Assembly (NCBI GenBank): GCA_028823885.1
Contig: JAPPFK010000152.1
Location: 293-64,292 of the forward strand
Reading direction: 5' to 3'
DNA: 64,000 nt
Origin: Rhodospirillales bacterium
GTDB lineage: Bacteria; Pseudomonadota; Alphaproteobacteria; Rhodospirillales; UBA2165
In this document: positions 1,448-57,609 of the stretch, piece by piece
Position numbering within the stretch: the first letter of the stretch is position 1
How the letters are laid out: each line of letters starts with the position of its first letter
Made by a program: the position numbers and the translations under genes
The notes under the pieces: generated by a model
Told to the model about the DNA's origin: nothing
What the model saw: the letters and a program-made list of their open reading frames with translations, nothing else
Database searches by the model: none

Positions 1448-3163
1448 ATGCGTTTGAACTGGACCAGCGGCCGCAAGGTTTTTGCCGCTCCAGCAGAGGC
1501 GCCTGAATTTGCGGTGAGCGACGGCATTGCAATAGGCACGAACGTGCGCGAGTCGTCCGGCGAGGGTCTGGCGGGATTCGTCAGGCGATCCCTCTATGGG
1601 TCGGGCGCCTACGATATATTCCTGAGAAGCGGGGCGCCGGAGAAGGTTCTGGGAACGCCGCCGGCTCTCCAGGCCGGCGATCCGGAGGCCGGACGGGCCA
1701 TTTTGAACGGCGCGCATACCCGCCACGGCAAGCACGTGCCCCTGCCCATGCTCGCGAAAGCCGACATTTCCGAAACCGGCGTCTCCCGTTACGCCCAGGA
1801 ATTCGGCTGGCTCGCCGACCTCAGGGCCTTGGGGACCGACGAAGCGCGTGAATTCGCCCGCCACGCAGTTGTCGATTGGCTGGATATTTTCGGGCGATGG
1901 CATCCCTATACATGGCGCGCCGAAATCGTCGGCAACCGGCTGGTCAATTGGCTGACCCATTACGGATTCTTTGGCTGGGCCGGGGACGACCTGGCCGCCC
2001 GGCGATTTCTCAAAGTCACCGGCAGCCAGGTCAGTCACCTCTCCAAATGCTACGGCGAGCCGCGGAGCGGTTACGGCCGCCTGGCGGCGGCGAAAGGCCT
2101 GATTTACGCCGGCATCGCACTGTCGGATTGCGGCCGGCACTTGGACACCGGACTGAACGCGATGCGCGAACAGCTCGAGGCGCAAATTCTTCCCGACGGC
2201 GGCCATATCAGCCGAAGCCCGGGCGTCCAGGCCCGGATTCTCGAGGACTTGATATCCATTCGCGACACCTTTCGGGCCGCGCACCTGGACCCGCCCGACT
2301 GGCTGCTCCGGCCGATACCCGAACTCGCGGCGGTGCTTCGGGCGCTGCGGCGGGCGGACGGGGCTCTCGCCGGGTTCAATGGCGGGCCGGCCATTTCCGT
2401 TTCGGAATCGAGCGCCATCCTGTCGGCCTCCAAGTCCCGGGCGGGCGCCGCGCCCGGCGAGCCCCATTCGGGCTTCCACCGTCTGGCGGCCGGCGACAGC
2501 CACCTCATCCTCGATGCCGGCGCGCCGCCGCCGGCTTACGCCCATCCCTGGGGCCACGCGGGCACGCTTGCGTTCGAGCTGGTCTCGGGCAAGGAACCGT
2601 TGATCGTCAACTGCGGGTCAGGCATGGACGGCGACCCGCACTGGCGGGAGGCGCTCAGAACCTCGGCCGCCCACTCCACCGTCATCGTCGATGAGACCAA
2701 CTCCTCCGAAATCGATTCCGCGGGAGGCTTCAGCCGCCGTTGCACGAATGTGTCGGCAAGCCGGCGGGAGGCCGGCAACCGCGTCATTCTGGAAGCTTCC
2801 CATGACGGCTATCTCCTTCCCTTCGGGCTGACCCATCGCCGGCTGATCATGATGGCGCCGTCGGGCGAAGACATCCGCGGCGAAGACAATCTGATCGGGG
2901 CCGGCGGAGAGACTTTCGCGGCGCGGTTTCACCTCCATCCCGGCGTTCAGGCTTCCATGCTGGCGAACGGCCGGAGCGTCCTGCTGAAGCTGCGGCGCAG
3001 CGGCTGGCGGTTCGATGCCTCGGAATATCCCGTGCGCCTCGAGGACAGCGTATTTCGAACGCCCGACGGCCGTACGCGGCGGTCACGGCAAGTCGTGATC
3101 CGAGGCGGTCTGGATGGAACCGGCGCAACAATTCGCTGGCGTCTGTCGCGGCTGGCCCGCTAA
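1448..3163 (+). CDS. heparinase II/III-family protein (copy 1)
   Basis: 571-aa ORF with ATG preceded by GAGG. The C-terminal half shows the heparinase II/III-like pattern (HAGTLAFELVSGKEPLIVNCGSG, AAHSTVIVDE). A paralog lies at 22983-24647. Confidence 0.7.
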   Translation: MRLNWTSGRKVFAAPAEAPEFAVSDGIAIGTNVRESSGEGLAGFVRRSLYGSGAYDIFLRSGAPEKVLGTPPALQAGDPEAGRAILNGAHTRHGKHVPLPMLAKADISETGVSRYAQEFGWLADLRALGTDEAREFARHAVVDWLDIFGRWHPYTWRAEIVGNRLVNWLTHYGFFGWAGDDLAARRFLKVTGSQVSHLSKCYGEPRSGYGRLAAAKGLIYAGIALSDCGRHLDTGLNAMREQLEAQILPDGGHISRSPGVQARILEDLISIRDTFRAAHLDPPDWLLRPIPELAAVLRALRRADGALAGFNGGPAISVSESSAILSASKSRAGAAPGEPHSGFHRLAAGDSHLILDAGAPPPAYAHPWGHAGTLAFELVSGKEPLIVNCGSGMDGDPHWREALRTSAAHSTVIVDETNSSEIDSAGGFSRRCTNVSASRREAGNRVILEASHDGYLLPFGLTHRRLIMMAPSGEDIRGEDNLIGAGGETFAARFHLHPGVQASMLANGRSVLLKLRRSGWRFDASEYPVRLEDSVFRTPDGRTRRSRQVVIRGGLDGTGATIRWRLSRLAR

Positions 3164-3207
3164 CATCCCGCGCGTCGTCCCCGCCATCAGCCGGCCGCAA
3201 TCCCCGC

Positions 3208-3507
3208 ATGAACCAAACCGCCGCCCAACTGCTGGAGAAGATCGAAAACCGCGGCGCGCGGGTCGGCGTCGTCGGAATGGGTTACGTCGGCCTGCCGCTG
3301 GCGCTCCTGTTCGCAAAGGCGGGCTTCAAGGTGGTGGGGCTCGACATCGACCAAGCCAAGGCGGACTCCCTCAATCGGGGGGAAAGCTACATCTCCCATA
3401 TTCCATCGGCGGAGATCGTCCGGCTGTTTGTCGACGGAACCGTGCCGTGGTTCCGTCAAAACACGACCCGATCTAGCCGGGAGCTTTTTTCTCCGGCGAT
3501 CGTTTGA
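3208..3507 (+). pseudogene. 5' remnant of a nucleotide-sugar dehydrogenase (UDP-glucose/GDP-mannose dehydrogenase family)
   Basis: Only 99 codons. The first ~70 aa are a typical N-terminal Rossmann fold (RVGVVGMGYVGLPLALLFAKAGFKVVGLDIDQAKADSLNRGESYISHI), then family-like sequence stops. The 3' end is overlapped by the converging gene at 3473-4756. Full-length members have ~400+ aa. Confidence 0.7.
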
Positions 3508-4756
3508 GACTAAACGCCATTGCCATGGCGCAAATCCACAATGTGCTCTGCCACCAATTTTGCCACGCGCCATAGGCGGTGAACGCGACAACCGCGCCGG
3601 ACACCAACATGCCCAGAAACAGATCCCGCGCGATTGGCGCCGCCGTCATCCGCCAAGCCGAAATCACCAACGCCGCGACCAGGCCGGAAAAGTACATCAG
3701 GCCGGCCAAGCCCAATTCGAGCCAAATCTGGAGGGCCATGTTATGGGGATGAAGCGGGAGGGGGTGGGCCAATCCTCGATAGACCATCTCGCCCCGTCGA
3801 TCGACCTCGACGACAGACGGGTCGAACCTCGCCCCGAGCGCGCGGGATGCGTCAAAACCATGACCAAGCAATGGCCGGTCCCGAATCAAGTCGCCGGCCG
3901 CATCCCAAATGATCAGCCGGTGATAGGCGGAACCGGACAACCTCGGAAACTCATCGACATGGCGCTGTAGCGGAGAGAACGAAATCATCAGCAGCGGCGC
4001 CGCCACGACGGCCAGCACGACCAATGTGGGAACCAACGCCGGGACCCATCTCCTCATCAATCGTGAAGCCAGGACGGCGCCGACGCCGATTGCGACGGCG
4101 GTGATGCCGACGTCGGCTTCGGCCAGGTAAACGGCGGCGATCAACAGGCCCGCCAAAAGGATCGTGGCGGCGGCCCTGCCGTCACGCACGGTCAGGCAGA
4201 CCGCCGGCCAGGTCAGCAGCGTCAGCACCGTGATCCCGTTGTTGAGCAGGCGTTTCGACGCTTCCCCGGTCAACTCGGCCGGATCGCCAACGAGCGCCCG
4301 AAGGTTCAAGCTGATCCAGGCGCCCGTCAGCAACTCGAATACGGCCAGCAGCAGCGCGGCCAACACGCCGATGACCAAAAACCGCTCCAGGGTTGCGGCG
4401 CCCTCCTGGTCGAGGCTGAGGCCGGCGCGAACCAGAACAATGCCTGCGAAAAACACGGCGAATATGGAGGGCACCGTCCGCAGGGTCCTCGCGGGCTCTA
4501 TCGCCCAGACGGCGCTGAGGGCGCAAAGGGCTGCAAACAGCAACAAATAGAGCGCCCATCCGTCCAGCCGGCCCATAAGAGGGCGCCGGGATTTCAGCGA
4601 CTCCCAGATCACCCCCACGGCAGCGACCGCCAACACGACCGTCAGGCCCTTTGGCGCAAACAAGCCGACGGGTCCCGCTAAAAGACAGGCCGCCGACAAG
4701 AAACCGCTGCGGTCCGGAAATTTCGCCCCCAGGAAGCGATGGGGTGGAGCCCTCAT
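3473..4756 (-). CDS. O-antigen ligase/polymerase family membrane protein (Wzy_C-type)
   Basis: 427-aa polytopic membrane ORF with the family loop motif HPHNMALQIWLELGLAGL. Confidence 0.75.
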   Translation of the reverse strand: MRAPPHRFLGAKFPDRSGFLSAACLLAGPVGLFAPKGLTVVLAVAAVGVIWESLKSRRPLMGRLDGWALYLLLFAALCALSAVWAIEPARTLRTVPSIFAVFFAGIVLVRAGLSLDQEGAATLERFLVIGVLAALLLAVFELLTGAWISLNLRALVGDPAELTGEASKRLLNNGITVLTLLTWPAVCLTVRDGRAAATILLAGLLIAAVYLAEADVGITAVAIGVGAVLASRLMRRWVPALVPTLVVLAVVAAPLLMISFSPLQRHVDEFPRLSGSAYHRLIIWDAAGDLIRDRPLLGHGFDASRALGARFDPSVVEVDRRGEMVYRGLAHPLPLHPHNMALQIWLELGLAGLMYFSGLVAALVISAWRMTAAPIARDLFLGMLVSGAVVAFTAYGAWQNWWQSTLWICAMAMAFSLKRSPEKKAPG

Positions 4757-5123
4757 GAAGCCTTACCCGAAACCAAAATCATCTCCATTTGCCTGCCGCC
4801 CGACGACGGCGGCGACGCCCTCTGTGATTGACCTGACGCTCGCTGGAGTACAGACCGCTTGTCACTCCACAACCACCGCCAAACGGTCCGCCGCCTTGAT
4901 GCTCGGGCAGCTAGGGACGGAGACCTCCGCACCGGTATTGATAGCTCAATCCAAACATGCGGGCAAACGGCGCCCCGGATTCCGGGGCAGCTGCAACAGC
5001 GGCCGCGCCGCCCGCAGTTCCATTTCGCCCGGCGCGGGCCGGGGCGGGCCGTCGGGTCTGTCCAGCCTCGAACGGATGAGCCTGAAAAATGCAGCAAGAT
5101 CAAGAACTAATCTCCAAGGGGCG

Positions 5124-5153
5124 TTGACGTTCACAATCTGAACAAGATATAGT
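5124..5153 (+). promoter_or_regulatory. candidate sigma70-type promoter upstream of the regulator/antiterminator pair
   Basis: TTGACG (5124-5129), 18 nt, TATAGT (5148-5153), in an AT-rich patch ~40 nt upstream of the 5191 start. Sequence pattern only. Confidence 0.3.
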
Positions 5154-5190
5154 TCACCAAATGAACACAAATTGATGTGGATTTGGTCCG

Positions 5191-5835
5191 GTGTCGCAAA
5201 ACCTAGACAACGAAGCTCCGGAGAACACGACCGTCACCCTTGGGGTGCTGAGCGCCGTCAGCGACAACAGCCGCGTAACTCAGCGCATGCTGGCGAACGA
5301 TCTGGGCATCGCACTGGGTTTGGTCAACTCCTACCTCAAACGCTGCGTCCGGAAGGGTTACATCAAAGTCCGGCAAGTCCCCAAGAATCGGTTCGCCTAT
5401 TACCTGACTCCCGAGGGGTTTTACGAGAAAAGCCGTTTGACGGCCGAGTTCCTTTCACAGTCTCTGAAATTCTATCGCATCGCCCGGAATCAGTGCACCG
5501 AACACCTCGAAGCCTGCGTCGCCAACGGTTGGCATTCGATCATCTTGGTTGGGTCGGGCGATCTTGCGGAAATCGCCGCCATCTGCGCCCAGAATTACCA
5601 GGTGGAGGTGCTTGGCGTGTTGTCCCCGGACGGCGCCGCAAGTGCCGTCCCCGGTCAGAAGGCTCTTTCGGATCTGGACGACCTGAAGAAAGCCGATGCG
5701 GTCATTTTCACCGATATGCAAGCCTCGCCTGATCTGCTGCGCGAGGTCGAGGCGCGGGTTTCAAGGGCGCGAATATTCGTTCCTCCGATTTTGAGTTTGC
5801 CGCTTGAGCAGATTCGCGGTCTGGACGATGCCTAG
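5191..5835 (+). CDS. winged-helix transcriptional regulator of the EPS-associated MarR-like type
   Basis: 214 aa. The N-terminal wHTH (VTQRMLANDLGIALGLVNSYLKRCVRKGYIKVRQVPKNRFAYYLTPEG) resembles regulators found at exopolysaccharide loci. Its stop overlaps the next gene's start (TAGTG). Confidence 0.6.
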   Translation: MSQNLDNEAPENTTVTLGVLSAVSDNSRVTQRMLANDLGIALGLVNSYLKRCVRKGYIKVRQVPKNRFAYYLTPEGFYEKSRLTAEFLSQSLKFYRIARNQCTEHLEACVANGWHSIILVGSGDLAEIAAICAQNYQVEVLGVLSPDGAASAVPGQKALSDLDDLKKADAVIFTDMQASPDLLREVEARVSRARIFVPPILSLPLEQIRGLDDA

Positions 5836-6341
5836 TGATGTCCAATTGGTACGCCATCTTCACCCACGCCCGTGCCGAGCAAAAGGCGCTGTTCAATCTC
5901 GAGCGGCAAGGGTTTCAATCGTTCTTTCCCAAATATCGCAAACGGCGGCGCCACGCCCGGCGCGTCGAAACGGTCTCGTCTCCGCTTTTTCCACGTTACG
6001 TTTTCGTTTGGCTGGATATCGATCGGCAGCCGTGGCGGTCAATCAATTCGACCTTGGGCGTTCAAGGAATTGTTTGCCAGGGTGAGAAACCCGCGCCGTT
6101 ACCAGAGGGAATCGTAGAGGAACTGATCTCCCGCCAGGACGAGCAGGGCTGTGTCGGCCTAAGCGGCAACACCTCGATCGCCCGAGGGCGGCCTGTGGAG
6201 ATCACCGACGGTCCATTTGCCGACTGCGTCGCCATCGTCGATCGGTTGCTGGACGAGGACAGGCTGGTCGTACTGCTCGATCTCCTGGGGCGTCGGGTCA
6301 AGGTGCAAGTTCAGGCCCGCGCGGTTATCGCCGCGGTTTGA
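5835..6341 (+). CDS. NusG-family transcription antiterminator, RfaH-like paralog
   Basis: 168 aa with an NGN domain (WYAIFTHARAEQKALFNLERQGFQSFFPKY, PLFPRYVFVWLD) and a KOW-like C-terminus (GRPVEITDGPFADCVAIVD). Start is GTG 5835 or ATG 5838. Confidence 0.75.
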   Translation: MMSNWYAIFTHARAEQKALFNLERQGFQSFFPKYRKRRRHARRVETVSSPLFPRYVFVWLDIDRQPWRSINSTLGVQGIVCQGEKPAPLPEGIVEELISRQDEQGCVGLSGNTSIARGRPVEITDGPFADCVAIVDRLLDEDRLVVLLDLLGRRVKVQVQARAVIAAV

Positions 6342-6360
6342 ACGTCGTGCACTGGGCGCG

Positions 6361-6397
6361 CTCCGGGTGAGCTTTTCACCCGGAGTGCGGTAGCGTG
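6361..6397 (+). promoter_or_regulatory. hairpin plus ops-like (RfaH recruitment/pause) element
   Basis: A perfect 10-bp stem, CTCCGGGTGA-gcttt-TCACCCGGAG (6361-6385), is followed directly by TGCGGTAGCGTG (6386-6397). That is 11/12 identical to E. coli ops GGCGGTAGCGTG, with the core GCGGTAGCG intact. It is in sense orientation, 20 nt after the RfaH-like gene's stop and 21 nt before the ATG at 6418. Confidence 0.45.
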
Positions 6398-6417
6398 GAA
6401 AAACCTCCCGGCCACAA

Positions 6418-6567
6418 ATGGATGCGACGGTGAGTCAAGATCCCGACGTTTCGGTGATCGTTCCGGTTCACAACCAGGGATGCAATGTACACCGATGTCT
6501 TCGTTCAGTCCTCGACCAACCCTCAACGCGGACGACTGCGTCCATCGGGAATATCCGGACACGCTGA
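6418..6567 (+). pseudogene. 5' remnant of a family-2 glycosyltransferase
   Basis: My own translation (49 codons, below the ORF-track cutoff): MDATVSQDPDVSVIVPVHNQGCNVHRCLRSVLDQPSTRTTASIGNIRTR*. The first ~35 aa match the canonical GT2 N-terminus (VSVIVPVxN, CLxSVLxQ). The expected DDGS(T)D segment is absent. Confidence 0.5.
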
Positions 6568-6610
6568 TGCCGCATCTGCGAAGCGATACAGCCGCGAGGA
6601 ACGAGTTTCC

Positions 6611-7294
6611 TTAAGCGGGAGGAATTACGAGATCCACGACCTCGGACAGCGAATCAATCCGGAAGTCCGCCATTTCCCGCTCGGATTCGTCTTTGGCATA
6701 CCCGTAGTTGACGCCGATTGACGGAACACCGGCGTCTCGGGCCGCGAGAAAATCGCTGCGGCTGTCACCGACAAATACACTCGAGTGAGCGGGCGTCTCC
6801 ATGAGTGACAGCGTCTCCAGGAGGTGGCGGCCGTCGGGTTTGGGGTAGGTGACATTGTCGCCGCCGGTAACGCCGCAAAACATATGGCTGAGCCCCAGCT
6901 CGCTGAGAACCACGAGGATCATCTCGTAGGGCTTGTTGGAACAGATGCCGAGCTTCAGTCCAGCCGACAAAAGCGCCCTCAGCGCCTCTTCGGCGGTTGG
7001 GTAAATCACCGTCTTCTCAACGGGCCGCGCCCGATACTGTTCGATGAACATGTCGACCGCGGCCTCCACTTGCCCGGCTGCCGCCTCCTCGCCCGTTGCG
7101 GTGAACGCACCCTCGATCATGTACCGAGCGCCATGCCCAACCAGCGCCCGAACCCCATCCAGCGCCAAAGCCGGCCGGTCAAACTCGGCCAGCATCCTAT
7201 TGAGCGCCGCGGCGACATCGGGAACACTGTCGACAAGGGTGCCGTCGAAATCAAAAACCACGGACGCGCGCGATCCAAGTGCCGGAATAGCCAT
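6611..7294 (-). CDS. gph: HAD-family phosphoglycolate phosphatase
   Basis: 227 aa with HAD motif I VVFDFDGTLVDS, then CSNKP and FVGDSRSDFLAARDAG. This is the intact copy of the repeated segment. Confidence 0.8.
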   Translation of the reverse strand: MAIPALGSRASVVFDFDGTLVDSVPDVAAALNRMLAEFDRPALALDGVRALVGHGARYMIEGAFTATGEEAAAGQVEAAVDMFIEQYRARPVEKTVIYPTAEEALRALLSAGLKLGICSNKPYEMILVVLSELGLSHMFCGVTGGDNVTYPKPDGRHLLETLSLMETPAHSSVFVGDSRSDFLAARDAGVPSIGVNYGYAKDESEREMADFRIDSLSEVVDLVIPPA

Positions 7295-7386
7295 TGCAAT
7301 CCTCAGCCTCCTGCTTATTCAGATGACAGATCGGTATCGAGCTTTCAAGCGGCGCAAGGCCGCCCAATCCGGAACCTCACTGATCG
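6724..7386. repeat. direct repeat, copy 1 (most of gph plus 92 bp upstream)
   Basis: 6963-7386 is identical base for base, by eye, to 31243-31666 (424 bp). 6724-6775 matches 31200-31251 with 4 mismatches. Copy 2 lacks 196 bp of copy 1, bounded by the 8-bp microhomology CCGACAAA at 6768-6775 and 6964-6971. Confidence 0.9.
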
Positions 7387-7490
7387 AGGTAACCGGAAGC
7401 CGAGACGTTCTGGAAGCAGCGATCCGATATTCAAGACCTGGGGCGCAAAGTGATTCTTGCGCCGGAATGGACTGAAGCAGGCGCCGCCTG

Positions 7491-9236
7491 ATGGTTGTCC
7501 ACGCCTTTTGCGTCAACGAGTTTTCCGTGTGGAGGATGCTGTGGTATCTGCTCCTCGGGCGGCGGGTCAGAATTCTAGCGGTTTTCGCAATCTACACGGC
7601 CTTCGATCGTCCGCTGCGGTGGCTGGTCGACCGCCTGACGGCGAAGGGCCGAATCGCACGGCTGGGCGATGACATCGAAGCGCTGGCGCCTCTGCAGGAC
7701 GATCCGGCCCGGGCGCTGCTCAGCGACTATTTCAACCGGATTGAACCGTGGCTCGAGAACTACTTCGGGTTCGGCGATCCGGATCCGGGCCACAGCGGCT
7801 ATCATCGCGCCTTTCAGCATCTGACGTGCAACTACATTGCGCTCCAGGCGGTCCAGATCGTTGCGCCGAGCATAGCGGCGGCGCGCTCTCCGGAAACGCA
7901 AGTCCGGTTTTACGGCTATCCAAGGGACATCGCGGCGGCGGCATGCGCGTTCGCGGGCCGGGACGCCCTGCCGCAAATTACCACGATGAGGCCGCCCGAT
8001 CGATTGCTCAACCTCCTGTTCAGTCTGGCGCTCGCCGCCTATTCCGCCGCCTGGCTGACGGTGCGCGTCCGGGCTTCACTGGCTCCGCCGGCCAGGATTT
8101 CGATGGCCTATGATTATCTTGATGATCCCACCCAGGCCGCCTTGTATCGGGAACTGGCCGGGTTGGGACCGTTTCTTCTGGTCCCGCGAAACAAGCCGCT
8201 GGCGCAAGAGGCGGAGCAACTCGACCTGCCGCCGCACAACCGGCGCACCATAACGGAGGGCCGATTCGGTTTTCTCGACGCGATCAAATGTTTCGGCGAA
8301 GCCGGACGGGACTGGCGGCAAATCCGGCGCCGTTACGGTTCCTGCTCCGCCCGCCATTTTCGTGAAGTAGCCGGTTTGGTTTACCGCCGCCTGGAGTATC
8401 GCGGCCTGTTTAATCTTTATGAGCCCAGGGTTTATTGGGGCCGGGACGGCTACTCGGCCGCGCACATTATCCGCCGCCAGGAACTCGCCCGGTTCGGCGG
8501 CGAGTCCTGGGGCGTATCTCATAGCTATTTTGCCCTTTCCGATTGCTATCCGGAATTTCGTTATTTGAACTTTGACCGCTACTACGTCATGGACCGGTCA
8601 ACAATTGAACGCTCATATGGCGAGAAATGGCCGGACTCCATGACGGTGGTCGGGGCTCAGCCGTTCAGGATGTCCCCGGCGCTAACCCGAGAAAGTCATT
8701 GTCCGAAACCGCCCGATATTCTTATCCTGTCGTCGGTTTCAATCTGGTCGCCGGCCTTTGTCCGGGCGGCGAGGGAAATCGCCGAGGCGTTCAGCGACCG
8801 GACCGTCAGGGTTCAGGTCAAACATAATCGCCAGCATCTGGACGCATGCCGGGAATTCCTCGACGCCGTCACCAAGGGTCTGGATCACACCGAAATTGTC
8901 ACCGAAAGGTCTCCCTACGCGCTATTTCCGCAATCCCGCTACACGGTCAGCGATCCGTCAACCGCGGCGGTAGAGTCGATCGTCAGCGGTTGCTACGGCT
9001 TCGTCTTGAACGTTGAGGAGGCCCAGTTGACCAACCCCTTGCGCCATCTGGACGGCGTTTGCGTAACGTCCGGGCCGGAAGCCGTTTCCCGGATCAAGGC
9101 GATCGAAAACGGGGAATGGGAGTATCCTTCCAAAGCCATTGCCGAGCATCTGGATATGTCCGGCACCGCTTTTCCGGACGTCATTCGCAGAGATTTCGGC
9201 CTGCCGCCCGCGGGTTTGGAGGCACGGCGATCATGA
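7491..9236 (+). CDS. hypothetical protein (581 aa), possible polysaccharide-biosynthesis enzyme
   Basis: Long ORF with an ATG start, first gene after the gph repeat. The C-terminal half has an alternating strand/helix Rossmann-like pattern (DILILSSVSIWSPAF, VRVQVKHN, SDPSTAAVESIVSGCYGFVL) reminiscent of GT-B or capsule-synthesis proteins. No diagnostic motif was recognised. Confidence 0.45.
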   Translation: MVVHAFCVNEFSVWRMLWYLLLGRRVRILAVFAIYTAFDRPLRWLVDRLTAKGRIARLGDDIEALAPLQDDPARALLSDYFNRIEPWLENYFGFGDPDPGHSGYHRAFQHLTCNYIALQAVQIVAPSIAAARSPETQVRFYGYPRDIAAAACAFAGRDALPQITTMRPPDRLLNLLFSLALAAYSAAWLTVRVRASLAPPARISMAYDYLDDPTQAALYRELAGLGPFLLVPRNKPLAQEAEQLDLPPHNRRTITEGRFGFLDAIKCFGEAGRDWRQIRRRYGSCSARHFREVAGLVYRRLEYRGLFNLYEPRVYWGRDGYSAAHIIRRQELARFGGESWGVSHSYFALSDCYPEFRYLNFDRYYVMDRSTIERSYGEKWPDSMTVVGAQPFRMSPALTRESHCPKPPDILILSSVSIWSPAFVRAAREIAEAFSDRTVRVQVKHNRQHLDACREFLDAVTKGLDHTEIVTERSPYALFPQSRYTVSDPSTAAVESIVSGCYGFVLNVEEAQLTNPLRHLDGVCVTSGPEAVSRIKAIENGEWEYPSKAIAEHLDMSGTAFPDVIRRDFGLPPAGLEARRS

Positions 9237-10233: not shown

Positions 10234-11373
10234 ATGAGTTCACCAAAATCATTTGTCGTCAACGGATTACGTAGGAGCGGCACGACGCTTCTTGAGCGGG
10301 TGTTCGACTCGCAGCCGAACATCACGTGTTTTTCATTCAAGTTCGACATTTTGACCTTTATTGCGCAAGCCAAAGGGCTCGACGGTAAAGGGGCGGTGAT
10401 GTTCGAGGATTTTACGTCCGAGGAATTTTCGCTGTCGGAGCGGTCGATTGCCGAGTGGCGGCTATTTATGGCCGAATCTTTGACAGGCGCCCTTTTTGGC
10501 GAAGAACTTGCTTACGGAAAAATTAGCGAAAAGGCAACAGACCAAATCTACGGTATGTCGTTCGACAACTACATGAAGATCATTCGAGTGATAGAGGATG
10601 CTGATGATCCGGCGGACATTTCATCGATCCTCGGCGGAATCGCGGCCCACCTGAACAAAGCCGCCGTCGGCATTCATTGGACCTTCAGTCACCGCTATGC
10701 TCCGGTATTCCTGCGGTCGGACAATGCCTATTGGATTGAAATTATTCGTGATCCCTACGAAAGACGCATGTCTGACAAACTGCGGAGCGGAACCCACTTT
10801 TTGGACTTTATCCGCCACACTCAGGATGGCCTGAATTTTGCAACGGACTTCAAACACCCCCGGTTCATGTTCGTTCGTTTTGAGGATTTGATTGACGACA
10901 CCAAAACGACTTTGAAGAAGTTGTCGGATTTTCTGGATACGGAAATTGAAGAAACGGAACTGATACATCCAATGGGCGGGCCCTTCAAACCCAACACCTC
11001 TCTGAACACATTGGACGGCAAAAGTACAAATTATCAAAATGGGGACTACGGCAGCAGAATAGGCGCTCTGAGCCGCGACAAATGGGCCTCGAAGATGACG
11101 GATTACGAGCGTTCGCTAATCACCAGGTCCATAAATTTGAGAGGTTTGTATGAGGCTCGGCCAGGCACGGCAGGCTCGGGCGCCCGGGCCGCCGTCGCAT
11201 TGGCCGGTATGAAGTTCCGGCGAGGCCTCAAAATCTATTATAAAAAAATATGTAAATGGCGCTCTCGCCCAGTTGGGGTACAAAATCACCAAAACCAGCG
11301 TAGATCGCCTATAGATCAGAGTCGCCTTCCAATCAGGCAGGCCACGATCCATCGAAGTCCTCGTCCCGCATGA
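10234..11373 (+). CDS. sulfotransferase-family protein
   Basis: 5'-PSB loop GLRRSGTTLLERV near the N-terminus and a 3'-PB-like IIRDPYERRMSDKL. AT-richer than its neighbours. The low-complexity C-terminal tail suggests the true stop or frame may differ. Confidence 0.65.
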   Translation: MSSPKSFVVNGLRRSGTTLLERVFDSQPNITCFSFKFDILTFIAQAKGLDGKGAVMFEDFTSEEFSLSERSIAEWRLFMAESLTGALFGEELAYGKISEKATDQIYGMSFDNYMKIIRVIEDADDPADISSILGGIAAHLNKAAVGIHWTFSHRYAPVFLRSDNAYWIEIIRDPYERRMSDKLRSGTHFLDFIRHTQDGLNFATDFKHPRFMFVRFEDLIDDTKTTLKKLSDFLDTEIEETELIHPMGGPFKPNTSLNTLDGKSTNYQNGDYGSRIGALSRDKWASKMTDYERSLITRSINLRGLYEARPGTAGSGARAAVALAGMKFRRGLKIYYKKICKWRSRPVGVQNHQNQRRSPIDQSRLPIRQATIHRSPRPA

Positions 11374-54654: not shown

Positions 54655-54833
54655 CCCCCTCACCCTGACCCTCTCCCCCTGAAGAAGGGGGAGAGGGAAC
54701 ACCACCGAAACTCCCTCGCCCCCAATCATGGGGGAGAGGGATGCGGAGGCTTGGCGAGTTAGGGCACAAAGCGAAGCGACTGCCCAAGCGAGCCTTAGCC
54801 GTAGCTGGGTGAGGGGGAAAGGGTTAGGGGGGG
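54655..54833. repeat. nested-palindrome intergenic repeat, copy A
   Basis: CCCCTCACCCTGACCC at the left end. Perfect 11-bp hairpin CCCTCTCCCCC-tgaagaa-GGGGGAGAGGG (54669-54697). Second hairpin CCCTCGCCCCC-aatcat-GGGGGAGAGGG (54713-54740). The right end GGGTGAGGGGGAAAGGGTTAGGGG is complementary to the left end. Lies between convergent genes. Confidence 0.85.
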
Positions 54834-56356
54834 CCGTCTGCCACGAGGCCGCGCAGCTCGTACTTGAGAATCTTGCCCATGGCGTTGCGCGGGAATTCGT
54901 CGACGAAGACCACGTCCTTGGGGTGCTTGAAGCGCGCCAGCACGCCGTCGAACCGCCCGGCCACCGTCTCCTTGTCCAGGGCCGCGCCGTCGCGGAGCGC
55001 GATCACCGCCACCGGCACCTCGCCCCATTTCTCGTCCGGGCGGCCGACCACCGAGGCGTCCTCCACCTCGTCCATGTCGTACAGCACCTGCTCCACTTCG
55101 GCCGGGTAGATGTTCTCGCCGCCGGAAATAATCACGTCCTTCAGGCGGTCGTTGACCCAGTAGTCGCCGTCCTCGTCCCGATAGCCCACGTCGCCGGTAT
55201 GGAACCAGCCGTCCCGGATGGCCTCCCGGGTCGCTTCCTCGTTGCCCCAATATTCGTAGAGGATGCTCTTGCCCTTGATGAGGATTTCGCCGGATTCGCC
55301 GGGCGTCACGTCGGCGCCGTCCTCGCCGACGATCCGCGCTTCGCAGTGAAGGGCCGGCTTGCCGATGGAGCCCGGCTTGCGGTAGCCGTCGGCGGCCAGC
55401 TGGTAGATGGCGCCGGGCGCCGTTTCGGTGGTGCCGTAAAGCTGGCAGACGGCCATGCCCCGGTCGAGGAACGGCTGGATCATCGCCACCGGCACGATGG
55501 TCGAGCCCGTGGTCATCTGCCGGAGCGACGACAGATCGGCGCTCTCCCAGCCGGGATGCCCCCTCATCGCCTGCATGACCGCCGGCACCGCGATCATCAG
55601 GGTGATCCGGTCGTCCTCGATGCTCCGCAGGGCGTCACCGGGATCGAACCGCTCGTGCAAGACGATGGATGCCCCGCAATAGAGCCCCGGGGTCAGCATG
55701 ATGTTGAGACCGCCGACATGAAACAGGGGGATACTCACCAGGATCCTGTCGTCGCTCCGAATGTCGGCGGCGTGAATGCAGTTGAGGGCGTTGTAATGGA
55801 TGGCCTCCTGGGTCAGCACCGCGCCCTTGGGCCGGCCGGTCGTGCCCGAGGTATAGACCAGCAGAAACGGCGCGTCGGCGCCCACATGGGGGTTGTGGTC
55901 GTCGCCCTCGGCCAGGGACAGCTCTTCGTCCAGACGGCGCCAGCCGAAGCGGGATGCGGCGCCGCGGCAGTCGACGAAGGCGGTATCCGGGAAATCGATC
56001 CTGAACCCCTCGGCGTGATCGAGATACTCGTCGTCGCAGAACACCGCCTTGGCGCCCGAGTCCCTGAGAATGTACGCATGCTCCCCCGCCGCCAGACGCC
56101 AGTTGAGCGGCAGGAACATGGCCCCCAGCCGGGCGGCGGCGAAGAACAGGAACAAATATTCGGCGGTGTTGGGGCCGAGATAGGCGATCCGGTCGCCGCG
56201 GCCGACGCCGAGGCGGTGCTTGAGCATCCGGGCATAGGTCCGGGCCTGACCGGCGAACTCGGCGTAGGTCACCTCGCCCCGCGCATGCTCGAAGGCGACC
56301 TTGTCGGGCGTGAATCCGGCGTGGGTCTCGATCCAGCCGGAGATGTCGTCGCTCAC
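54824..56356 (-). CDS. AMP-dependent acyl-CoA synthetase/ligase
   Basis: GTG 56356 (VSDDISGWIETH) in a GTGA overlap with the upstream ACAD stop, 510 aa. AMP motif LVYTSGTTGRPKGAVL, plus GWFHTGDVGYRDEDGDYW and GGENIYPAEVE. Confidence 0.85.
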   Translation of the reverse strand: MSDDISGWIETHAGFTPDKVAFEHARGEVTYAEFAGQARTYARMLKHRLGVGRGDRIAYLGPNTAEYLFLFFAAARLGAMFLPLNWRLAAGEHAYILRDSGAKAVFCDDEYLDHAEGFRIDFPDTAFVDCRGAASRFGWRRLDEELSLAEGDDHNPHVGADAPFLLVYTSGTTGRPKGAVLTQEAIHYNALNCIHAADIRSDDRILVSIPLFHVGGLNIMLTPGLYCGASIVLHERFDPGDALRSIEDDRITLMIAVPAVMQAMRGHPGWESADLSSLRQMTTGSTIVPVAMIQPFLDRGMAVCQLYGTTETAPGAIYQLAADGYRKPGSIGKPALHCEARIVGEDGADVTPGESGEILIKGKSILYEYWGNEEATREAIRDGWFHTGDVGYRDEDGDYWVNDRLKDVIISGGENIYPAEVEQVLYDMDEVEDASVVGRPDEKWGEVPVAVIALRDGAALDKETVAGRFDGVLARFKHPKDVVFVDEFPRNAMGKILKYELRGLVADGPP

Positions 56357-57609
56357 TCGTCCTCCTCGCCCCTGTTGTAGAGGGCTTCGCGGCCGAGGCG
56401 GTCCTGGCAAATCTCCGCCGTCCACGGCAGCATCAGGGCGCCGCAGCGGCTGTCCCGGTAGAGCCGCTCCAGCGGCAGGCTCTTGAGCATGGATTGGCCG
56501 CCGCAGGTGCGGATCGCCATCCGGCACAGTTCGTTGGAATTCTCCATCACCGCATATTGCGCCGTATAGGCCCTGAGCACCTGCTCCTTGCTCGGGTTGG
56601 GGCCGGCCTCGGCAATCGCCTGGAACCACACCGACTTGGTCTGCTCCAGCATCATGTGCATGTTGGCCACCGCCAGCTGCTTGGTCGGGTACATTCGCCG
56701 CTTCACCGGCGGCGTGCCCGGCGCTTCGCCGCGCAGGTACTTGACGGTGAAATCATAGGCCGCCTGGGCGATGCCCATGTAGGTGGGCGTCAGGGTCAGG
56801 AACATGTGCGGCCAGCTGGTCGCCGCCGCGAAATAGATCCCCTTGGGCATCAGCTGTTCGTCGTTGCTGACGAACACGTTGTCGAACAGGAGATTGCGGC
56901 TGACGGTTCCGCGCATGCCCAGGGGATCCCAGTCGCCGACTACGCTGACCCCTTCGGCGTCCGCCGGCACCGCCACGTACATGGTGTCCCGCCGGGACAG
57001 GTTCTGTTTCTTCTCGGTGCACAGCACGCCGTAATAGTCGGCGGAGCCCGCCAGCGACGCGAAGATCTTCTTGCCGTTGATCAGCCAGCCGCCGTCGGTC
57101 TTGGTCGCGGTGGTGCCGAACGGCGCCGTCCCGGCCGCCGCCGCGCCGCCCTCGGAAAACGGCTGGGCGTAGATGGCGCCGTCCTTGACGATCCGCTTGT
57201 AGTGGATGGCCCGGCGGCGGTTATGGGTCTTGCGCTGGGCCGCCGTCATCTTGAGGTCGTCGGCGAGGTCGCCGGTCCACAGGCAGGAGCTGACGTGCAT
57301 GTTCCAGGTCAGCGACGTGGTGCCGCAATAGCGCCCGATCTCGGCGGCGGTCAGCATGTAGGTCATGTAGTCGGCGCCGATGCCGCCGTTCCTGGACGGC
57401 ACGCAGATGCCCAGCAGCTTCGACTTGTGGAGGTCCTTGTAGTTCTCCATCGGGAAGATGGCGTCCCGGTCCCACTTGTCGGCCCGGGCGGCGAATTTCT
57501 CCTGGCCCAGTTTCCGCGCCTGCGCCGTCAGGTCCGCCTGCTTTTTGTTCAGCCGCCACGCCTTGGGATCGTACATGGGGGCGTCGAGTCGGTCGTTCGC
57601 GGTCGCCAT
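56353..57609 (-). CDS. acyl-CoA dehydrogenase-family flavoprotein
   Basis: 418 aa with the three-domain ACAD pattern (GGIGADYMTYMLTAAEIGRYC, then C-terminal LERLYRDSRCGALMLP). Confidence 0.8.
   Translation of the reverse strand: MATANDRLDAPMYDPKAWRLNKKQADLTAQARKLGQEKFAARADKWDRDAIFPMENYKDLHKSKLLGICVPSRNGGIGADYMTYMLTAAEIGRYCGTTSLTWNMHVSSCLWTGDLADDLKMTAAQRKTHNRRRAIHYKRIVKDGAIYAQPFSEGGAAAAGTAPFGTTATKTDGGWLINGKKIFASLAGSADYYGVLCTEKKQNLSRRDTMYVAVPADAEGVSVVGDWDPLGMRGTVSRNLLFDNVFVSNDEQLMPKGIYFAAATSWPHMFLTLTPTYMGIAQAAYDFTVKYLRGEAPGTPPVKRRMYPTKQLAVANMHMMLEQTKSVWFQAIAEAGPNPSKEQVLRAYTAQYAVMENSNELCRMAIRTCGGQSMLKSLPLERLYRDSRCGALMLPWTAEICQDRLGREALYNRGEEDE

Follow-up and report, generated by a model that had tools for sequence, protein, structure and literature searches.

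A conserved hairpin-plus-ops element follows an RfaH-like gene at the edge of polysaccharide clusters in Alphaproteobacteria

Except for E. coli RfaH, the way in which NusG paralogs locate their targets is acknowledged to be an open question, and a 64-kb stretch of DNA from a Rhodospirillales bacterium (contig JAPPFK010000152.1; hereafter the window, whose positions are used for all coordinates) raises it in a concrete form. Here, the gene of an RfaH-like NusG paralog ends with the stop codon TGA at 6339-6341. After 19 nt there begins a hairpin with a perfect 10-bp stem and a 5-nt loop, GCTTT (6361-6385, plus strand; arms CTCCGGGTGA at 6361-6370 and TCACCCGGAG at 6376-6385), followed directly on the plus, non-template strand by the ops-like 12-mer TGCGGTAGCGTG (6386-6397), which is identical to GGCGGTAGCGTG at 11 of 12 positions. 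In E. coli, ops bases 3-8 are needed for the recruitment of RfaH and form a small hairpin in the non-template DNA, while T11-G12 cause the polymerase to pause (PMC5995543). Is the segment behind the RfaH-like gene a signal, and if so, what would it do? A preliminary description of this DNA had taken it for the leader of a polysaccharide operon on which the adjacent paralog acts. All its coordinates, those of the hairpin, the 12-mer, the short open reading frame (ORF) from the ATG at 6418 to 6567 and the minus-strand gene from 6611, proved exact on re-reading, and Pfam and NCBIfam searches agreed with its gene labels (NusG/RfaH paralog, N-terminal remnant of a family-2 glycosyltransferase (GT2), gph).

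The match in the window says little on its own. When one mismatch is allowed, the 12-mer occurs once in the window, where 0.44 matches are expected, and at least one match appeared in 31 of 100 shuffles. Motif statistics on their own were therefore rejected as proof, the match in the window not being significant, just as the preliminary description had cautioned. The significance of the segment comes instead from its relatives, which carry the same motif and hairpin after the homologous gene. A genome scan with an alignment of homologues retrieved 80 loci with proteins 43-51% identical, nearly all from Alphaproteobacteria (Rhodospirillales, Hyphomicrobiales, Bradyrhizobium, Nitrobacter, Pseudolabrys). 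Counting the window and three close relatives, GCGGTAG lies on the strand of the paralog gene, 44-102 nt 3' of its stop codon, in 64 of 84 loci; simple arithmetic gives a chance expectation of about one locus for a 7-mer within 200 nt. The comparison of relatives that had been suggested as a check thus came out in favor of the element.

A covariance model, R1, was built from the elements found in the loci of the relatives. Applied to the window with filters off, R1 gave a single strong match, which we take as the extent of the whole composite element (6354-6405, plus strand, 56.4 bits, E 3.1e-14). An echo of 13 bits falls on the opposite strand of the same palindromic stem, and the next best match reaches 8.6 bits (E 0.86). 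That match, TGCGGTAGC near 55370 (55325-55397), lies inside the ORF 54728-56380 and was judged to be chance; with R1 and filters off, the 64 kb of the window hold no further copies, other operon leaders included. Across the 84 loci R1 found 70 elements, among them a degenerate copy next to the paralog in L006, a tandem second copy in L017 and four located elsewhere in the locus, and the score of the window element is among the best of them all. No Rfam family overlaps 6342-6610 at E values up to 10, and none matches the whole window at gathering thresholds; two weak Rfam matches elsewhere in 5000-8000 (PreQ1-III and a human long non-coding RNA) are noise. Judged by its conservation, the segment after the RfaH-like gene is a real signal, one that is widespread in Alphaproteobacteria.

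What does this signal consist of? The seeds of the model were picked by an exact GCGGTAG, while motif positions 1, 9, 11 and 12 and the hairpin sequence TCACCC were free of that selection. Among the 70 related elements, the motif opens with T in 63 and with G in 7. It then reads GCGGTAGC at positions 2-9 with almost no exceptions, allows any base at position 10, and has T at position 11 in 62 elements and G at position 12 in 58. Read as sequence, this profile, [T/G]GCGGTAGC-N-T-G, is the E. coli ops consensus, with the TG pause dinucleotide included.

The hairpin always directly precedes the motif. Its 3' arm, beginning with a nearly invariant TCACCC (6376-6381 in the window), continues as TCACCCGRAS directly into the motif, while the loop is variable and the 5' half of the hairpin is far less conserved than the 3' half. 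Each of the 64 seeds folds into a hairpin whose loop measures 3-12 nt, and 0-4 nt lie between its stem and ops position 1; in 64 of the 70 elements this spacing is just 0-2 nt. In the alignment fitted to the model, 79% of the cells are paired, compared with 37-48% when the partners are slid, and the covariation of the stem is 0.197 compared with 0.112 in shuffles, none of 500 of which reached the observed value. This covariation evidence comes from four basal pairs of the model-fitted alignment, where compensatory changes among CG, GC, UA and UG occur. The stem region has a fold energy of -18.5 kcal/mol, with a z-score of -3.0 for the 79-nt region. The base of the hairpin lies 11 nt behind U6396, which is the geometry of hairpin-stabilised pauses and of the pause hairpins of Bacteroides opsX (PMC11685472). 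We also considered whether the stem continues through ops positions 1-4 to give an 'escape duplex' like those of Bacteroides opsA and opsB. Such an extension is present in the minimum-energy fold of the window; in the relatives it appears in 50 of 67 elements and, with shuffled 5' flanks, in 43.5, which is chance level, and it was rejected. By these sequence features the element is a composite unit of about 45 nt of which the hairpin is an integral, conserved half. The preliminary description had listed an ops-like 12-mer and a separate hairpin; both are present, but they belong to one unit, in which TCACCC is nearly invariant. Just 3' of ops position 12 (6398-6405 in the window), a semi-conserved A-rich stretch, GGAAAA or CCTGAA, occupies the same position in many loci.

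Next to what kind of genes does this unit lie? In 76 of 83 related loci, the paralog is directly preceded by a MarR-like gene of the same strand. On the other side, a co-directional biosynthesis gene begins about 10-90 nt 3' of the element in the relatives. This first gene differs in nearly every lineage, and it had a sugar or polysaccharide function in all ten distant loci tested, its products including an epimerase/dehydratase, a Gfo/Idh/MocA oxidoreductase, Polysacc_synt_2, an ABC exporter, a C-methyltransferase, a UDP-GlcNAc 2-epimerase, NeuB, asparagine synthase and a DegT aminotransferase. From this gene context, the module of marR-like gene, rfaH-like gene and hairpin-ops element sits at the 5' edge of variable surface-polysaccharide clusters in many Alphaproteobacteria. 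Both proposals of the preliminary description are thus supported, the role of the segment as the leader of a polysaccharide operon by the genes that follow the element in relatives, and its link to the adjacent NusG paralog by a synteny conserved across a bacterial class. Some of the assemblies that bear the module (L013, L018, L025, L031, L055 and L068) are labelled Verrucomicrobiota, Chloroflexota, Hydrogenedens, Acidiferrales or Methylopumilus; these odd labels may reflect mis-binned alphaproteobacterial contigs or horizontal transfer.

The element is not restricted to the site after the paralog, since good copies occur with no rfaH-like gene upstream. A pattern scan of metagenomes gave 120 exact matches, about two thirds of which are chance (no hairpin, low model score), and only those above about 27 bits were used. 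Filtered with R1, the scan produced more modules and also copies of 27-52 bits that have no adjacent rfaH-like gene. These lie 5' of CpsB/CapC, ABC-2 exporter and nucleotidyltransferase genes and 3' of Wzc-like, Bac_transf and GT1 genes. Copies of this kind in polysaccharide loci were seen on the metagenome contigs L122, L115, L181, L161, L182, L090 and L106, and some sit between co-directional genes and not at the start of an operon, a finding that suggests targets acted on in trans. The second copy in Bradyrhizobium retamae Ro19 (L017, 4529-4583) is a weaker element of 32.4 bits with the core TGCTGTAGC; it follows the first after about 240 nt and stands ahead of an asparagine synthase gene.

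The closest relatives show what the leader is attached to. Three metagenome contigs (L001, L002 and L003) encode proteins 96-97% identical to the paralog, and all three have the MarR-like gene, the paralog, the hairpin and then TGCGGTAGC[G/A]TGG. Beyond the element they part ways. L001 continues with an intact 225-aa GT2, a DegT-type aminotransferase gene and NeuB, an arrangement that agrees with the polysaccharide leader of the preliminary description. L002 has a GT2 relic, a cytidylyltransferase gene, a dehydrogenase gene, a GT2-ADH fusion and a homologue of the gene at 7491, so that about 3.4 kb of biosynthesis genes stand where the window has gph. L003 has the layout of the window, including the convergent HAD gene, at about 90% nucleotide identity. 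Since these close relatives keep the module and differ in three downstream cassettes, the module is, as far as their sequences tell, a conserved flank beside an exchangeable cassette.

In the window, the first gene of the cassette is a decayed GT2 gene (6418-6580, plus strand), of which a 49-codon ORF from 6418 to 6567 is left; it matches the Pfam GT2 profile only over positions 1-25, under the cut-off (E 2.4e-4), while its DNA homology to the intact GT2 continues until about 6580. The relic matches two parts of the intact L001 gene, its 5' 143 nt and 50 nt of its interior, with 90% identity, and three lesions separate relic and intact gene. The first, common to the window, L002 and L003, is an in-frame deletion of 168 nt between two copies of the 10-bp direct repeat GACGACTACG, which holds the D-D-Y codons of the aspartate-rich motifs DADDYE and DGDDYV (6531-6580 in the window; 10694-10703 and 10871-10880 in L001). 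The second, a 1-nt deletion near 6519, is seen in the window only. The third is the end of the homology, after about 6580 in the window and L003 and about 6560 in L002. The preliminary description held that the rearrangement which brought gph here cut the first glycosyltransferase. The relic and the convergent gph are real, but that account is too simple: the 168-nt deletion is independent of the arrival of gph, as L002 has the same deletion and no gph. Upstream of the ATG at 6418 no Shine-Dalgarno sequence is evident, and CCTCC stands there.

The protein that would use the element is encoded at 5835/5838-6341 (plus strand, 167-168 aa). Its NGN domain matches Pfam NusG over residues 4-97 (E 5e-22), and with one KOW domain and a length of about 160 aa it has the NusG fold. 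The best NCBIfam model is RfaH, but the equivalog cut-off is missed: TIGR01955 gives 114.2 bits where 144.5 are required, and NF006534 gives 89.8 where 124 are required. E. coli RfaH is also the best solved relative, with a gapless alignment to about residue 100. Q24, Y54, T72, G74 and R138 are invariant in the clade, R23 is nearly so, and V75 is also kept. Among the side chains that contact ops in E. coli, R23 is kept in the window, as is Q24, which lines the T6 pocket, while K10 is replaced by H, H20 by N and R73 by L. In the autoinhibited state of E. coli RfaH, the C-terminal domain is alpha-helical and a salt bridge between E48 and R138 holds it. The window has S at residue 48 and most of the clade has A, R, S or V; E never occurs there, although R138 is kept. 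An AF2 model made from a 23-sequence alignment (pLDDT 87.9) has a beta-barrel C-terminal domain. In structure comparison this model aligned over its full length only to active ('fully recruited') RfaH and to NusG, and to autoinhibited RfaH over the N-terminal domain only. The missing E48 and the predicted beta-barrel domain together suggest that the paralog is probably not autoinhibited. RfaH is the best family for the protein that the preliminary description labelled 'RfaH-like', but several ops-contact residues and the autoinhibition residue are absent, and on its sequence 'RfaH-like' should not be read as 'RfaH'.

We consider it likely that the element acts as a hairpin-stabilised ops pause, at which polymerase on its way into a long and variable polysaccharide operon is loaded with the RfaH-like factor of the adjacent gene. 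Pausing, recruitment, anti-termination, cis loading and present activity in this genome are inferred here from the sequence, conservation, synteny, covariation and motif profile that we computed. The polymerase would have transcribed the marR-like and rfaH-like genes before it transcribes the hairpin and arrives at ops. That it most likely reaches the element through these two genes is indicated by the only promoter-like match in 4600-7700, a sigma-70-like candidate (TTGACG-18-TATAGT, 5124-5153, plus strand) 5' of the MarR-like gene, which is a consensus match only, at 10 of 12 positions, where the simple consensus scan is expected to give 0.8 in this region by chance. The same simple scan found no promoter-like site between the paralog and the element, a promoter within the 3' end of the paralog gene being still possible. 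At U6396 the polymerase is predicted to pause, as T11-G12 together with G2 at position -10 fit the consensus pause, and the nascent RNA hairpin, ending 11 nt behind the RNA 3' end, would prolong this pause. The exposed non-template GCGGTAGC would then recruit the RfaH-like protein, which would ride with the polymerase and suppress pausing and Rho-dependent termination through the long downstream operon. Loading would probably be mainly in cis, because the factor is predicted to be non-autoinhibited and its coding sequence is on the same transcript, about 55 nt upstream; action in trans would be possible through the copies of the element elsewhere.

Several observations weigh against this proposal. 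Of the 79 assessable distant loci, 14 have no element in the fetched DNA and four have one only away from the paralog stop. The invariance of motif positions 2-8 is partly an effect of the way in which the seeds were selected. In the stem, the apical GGGTGA/TCACCC never varies and hence yields no covariation evidence; its constancy suggests that it is read as sequence. Mismatches in the stem are G:T in 50 cases and A:C in 28, which is the expected direction, yet the excess is modest and comes from a model-fitted alignment. The protein raises a further difficulty. Throughout the clade K10 is mostly Q or H and a hydrophobic residue (V, I, F, L or Y) always takes the place of R73, and a comparison of loci that carry the element with loci that lack it showed no difference in the contact residues. 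With K10, H20 and R73 gone, recognition must differ in detail from that of E. coli RfaH, or may not be made by the N-terminal domain as it is there. Finally, in the window itself the downstream GT2 is broken and gph is convergent, and here the element may be a relic.

It is quite possible, though somewhat short of an even chance, that the element was once functional and is a relic in this genome, the block at 7491 being transcribed from a promoter of its own in 7295-7490. The three lesions of the GT2 gene and the orientation of gph fit such a loss, as do the 196-nt gap ahead of 7491 and the single element in 64 kb. Against it, the element is intact and its R1 score ranks with the best, the same layout persists in L003 at about 90% nucleotide identity, and a simple scan of the plus strand over 6400-7490 detected neither a promoter-like nor a terminator-like site. 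If the hairpin-stabilised ops pause is currently active in this genome, the modified polymerase must cross gph antisense to reach the block at 7491.

LoaP is a NusG paralog of Firmicutes that is proposed to bind a hairpin in the leader RNA. As with LoaP, the paralog gene lies beside its presumed target and a hairpin stands in the leader, and one could suppose that the element is recognised as RNA, with the nascent hairpin and a single-stranded GCGGUAGC tail bound by the paralog in a LoaP-like manner or by another RNA-binding factor. We regard this as improbable. RNA and non-template DNA have the same sequence, so conservation cannot separate the two, and both the conservation of the TCACCC arm beyond the needs of pairing and the loss of R73, K10 and H20 from the DNA pocket of E. 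coli RfaH speak in its favor. However, the invariant core, GCGGTAGC, coincides exactly with the non-template hairpin of E. coli, and the pause TG follows at the right distance; the conserved tail is the DNA motif of RfaH. The LoaP model gives the paralog 54.8 bits, short of its cut-off of 125, and the C-terminal domain, with a net charge of 0 counted from the translation, is unlike the basic KOW domains proposed to bind RNA (PMC11685472). In Bacteroides, moreover, the region that encodes the hairpin works as upstream duplex DNA (PMC11685472).

Less probable still, and by our estimate a poor account of the data, is that the marR-rfaH transcript ends at the hairpin, which would be a stabilising stem-loop or else a terminator or attenuator that lacks a U tract, the conserved tail being part of that signal. 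The stem is stable and G+C-rich, it stands close behind the stop codon, and nothing intact follows on the same strand in the window. But the hairpin was not called by the terminator scan and does not qualify as an intrinsic terminator, as its tail is TGCGGTAGCGTGG and holds no U tract; the invariant GCGGTAGC-N-TG that follows would be needless for a terminator; the co-directional biosynthesis gene of the relatives starts so soon after the element; and the element is also found with no preceding rfaH-like gene. MarR proteins bind palindromes, and GGGTGA...TCACCC, with its nearly invariant half-sites in a module that conserves a MarR-like gene, could be imagined as the DNA operator of the regulator encoded two genes upstream, but this is hardly credible, since the half-sites are 3-12 nt apart where a dimer operator needs a fixed spacing, conservation is much weaker in the 5' half than in the 3' half and the basal pairs covary, the site is 3' of the genes and away from the promoter candidate, and the attached ops motif would be left unexplained.

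A hairpin-stabilised ops pause thus remains the reading that we favor, and it can be set beside the systems already known. In its DNA core the element resembles E. coli ops, and its architecture is like that of Bacteroides opsX; as these are defined, it is a member of neither. With E. coli ops (GGCGGTAGnnTG) it shares an identical core, the pause TG at positions 11-12 and a free position 10 (PMC5995543), the 12-mer of the window agreeing with the 12-nt consensus at 11 positions. As in E. coli, the site lies on the non-template strand, in the sense of the flanking genes' strand, and ahead of long surface-polysaccharide operons, the first gene of which is a relic in the window. On the protein side, R23, Q24, T72, G74 and V75 are common to the two factors. 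In contrast, E. coli ops is a backtrack-type (class II) pause without a pause hairpin (PMC11685472), whereas here a conserved hairpin abuts ops. The regulator gene is found here 45-100 nt upstream of the site and behind a MarR-like gene, position 1 is T and not G, and the factor has a predicted beta-barrel C-terminal domain and none of K10, H20, R73 and E48.

JUMPStart is a 39-bp element, and an Rfam motif, of gammaproteobacterial polysaccharide leaders. Like the element described here, it has ops at its 3' end and marks the 5' boundary of exchangeable polysaccharide clusters, a conserved flank beside a variable cassette; unlike it, its upstream sequence is not the TCACCC hairpin, and, as said above, the region has no Rfam match.

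The opsX elements of Bacteroides UpxY (Nat Commun 2024, PMC11685472) are closer in build. They too are multipartite, about 40 bp long, with an RNA pause hairpin followed by a GCG..AGC non-template hairpin, and their hairpins end about 11-14 nt behind the pause, a geometry matched by the one computed here for a predicted pause. In both systems the regulator is encoded at the locus that it controls, at the edge of variable capsule or polysaccharide operons, and the hairpin-encoding region shows sequence conservation, which would be expected of a region that is read as upstream duplex DNA as well. The differences lie in the arrangement and in the family: opsX is 5' of upxY-upxZ, while the present element is 3' of the regulator gene, whose partner is MarR-like and not UpxZ; Bacteroides has locus-specific variants, while here one motif extends over many genera; and the UpxY model gives the paralog 74.7 bits against a cut-off of 100.

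A 2026 bioRxiv preprint describes RfaH homologues, predicted to be monomorphic and non-autoinhibited, beside their target operons and proposes their recruitment in cis, with no site named (PMC13015549). The paralog agrees with this class in its predicted beta-barrel C-terminal domain, its lack of E48 and the position of its gene beside a lipopolysaccharide or polysaccharide operon, and it would fit cis recruitment; the class, for which members from Idiomarina and Pseudidiomarina were tested, is treated as ops-independent, however, whereas here the ops core is strictly conserved (PMC13015549). The plasmid-borne PrfaH of IncX has its ops-like site upstream of prfaH (PMC11880322), in contrast to a site downstream of the paralog. 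Wang et al. 2020 reported alphaproteobacterial RfaH homologues and a cluster with a helix-turn-helix neighbour, and described no recruitment site (PMC7593976). Our literature search, which was incomplete and is no proof of novelty, found no paper on ops or a hairpin beside alphaproteobacterial rfaH-like genes.

These comparisons allow a bolder suggestion, which we put forward tentatively and regard as rather unlikely: that the clade represents an ancestral type of RfaH, with no autoinhibition, no R73 pocket, the full GCGGTAGC core and loading in cis, so that ops recognition would predate autoinhibition. The polymerase would then be held about 55 nt past the stop codon while the trailing ribosome releases the factor beside it, and the invariant TCACCC, recognised either in the upstream duplex DNA or in the RNA, would serve as a second determinant. 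If true, this would reverse the order proposed for the evolution of RfaH; and if the factor reads the same DNA core without K10, H20, R73 and E48, that order needs revisiting. More immediately, for a large clade of Alphaproteobacteria with cultured members in Bradyrhizobium and Nitrobacter the element offers a concrete and testable site, and the succession of marR-like gene, rfaH-like gene and hairpin plus ops gives a simple marker for the 5' boundary of exchangeable surface-polysaccharide cassettes.

The remaining genes of the locus are as follows. The first gene of the module (5191-5835, plus strand) encodes a 214-aa regulator of the MarR/winged helix-turn-helix family (Pfam HTH_24, 4.3e-10), which scores 63.7 bits with the NCBIfam model MarR_EPS (TIGR04176), under its cut-off of 88; its stop codon TAG at 5833-5835 abuts the start of the paralog. 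The convergent gene (6611-7294, minus strand) encodes a gph-like phosphatase of the HAD family, supported by Pfam HAD_2 (1.5e-33) and by NCBIfam PGP_bact (TIGR01449, 186.6 bits against a cut-off of 180). Further upstream, L001 (6475-7809) and L002 (5127-6461) have a UDP-glucose/GDP-mannose dehydrogenase gene between a heparinase-II/III-like gene and a Wzy_C gene, and the window is without it at 3163-3473.

Beyond gph, a long co-directional polysaccharide block opens with a gene of 581 aa (7491-9236, plus strand), whose product has no Pfam or NCBIfam match. From 7491 to about 20.8 kb the plus-strand ORFs are nearly unbroken, with GT8-like, sulfotransferase, ABC exporter and radical SAM genes among them, and this block may once have been led by the element. 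Homologues of its first product, of 595 aa, are kept in L002 and L003, inside polysaccharide operons.

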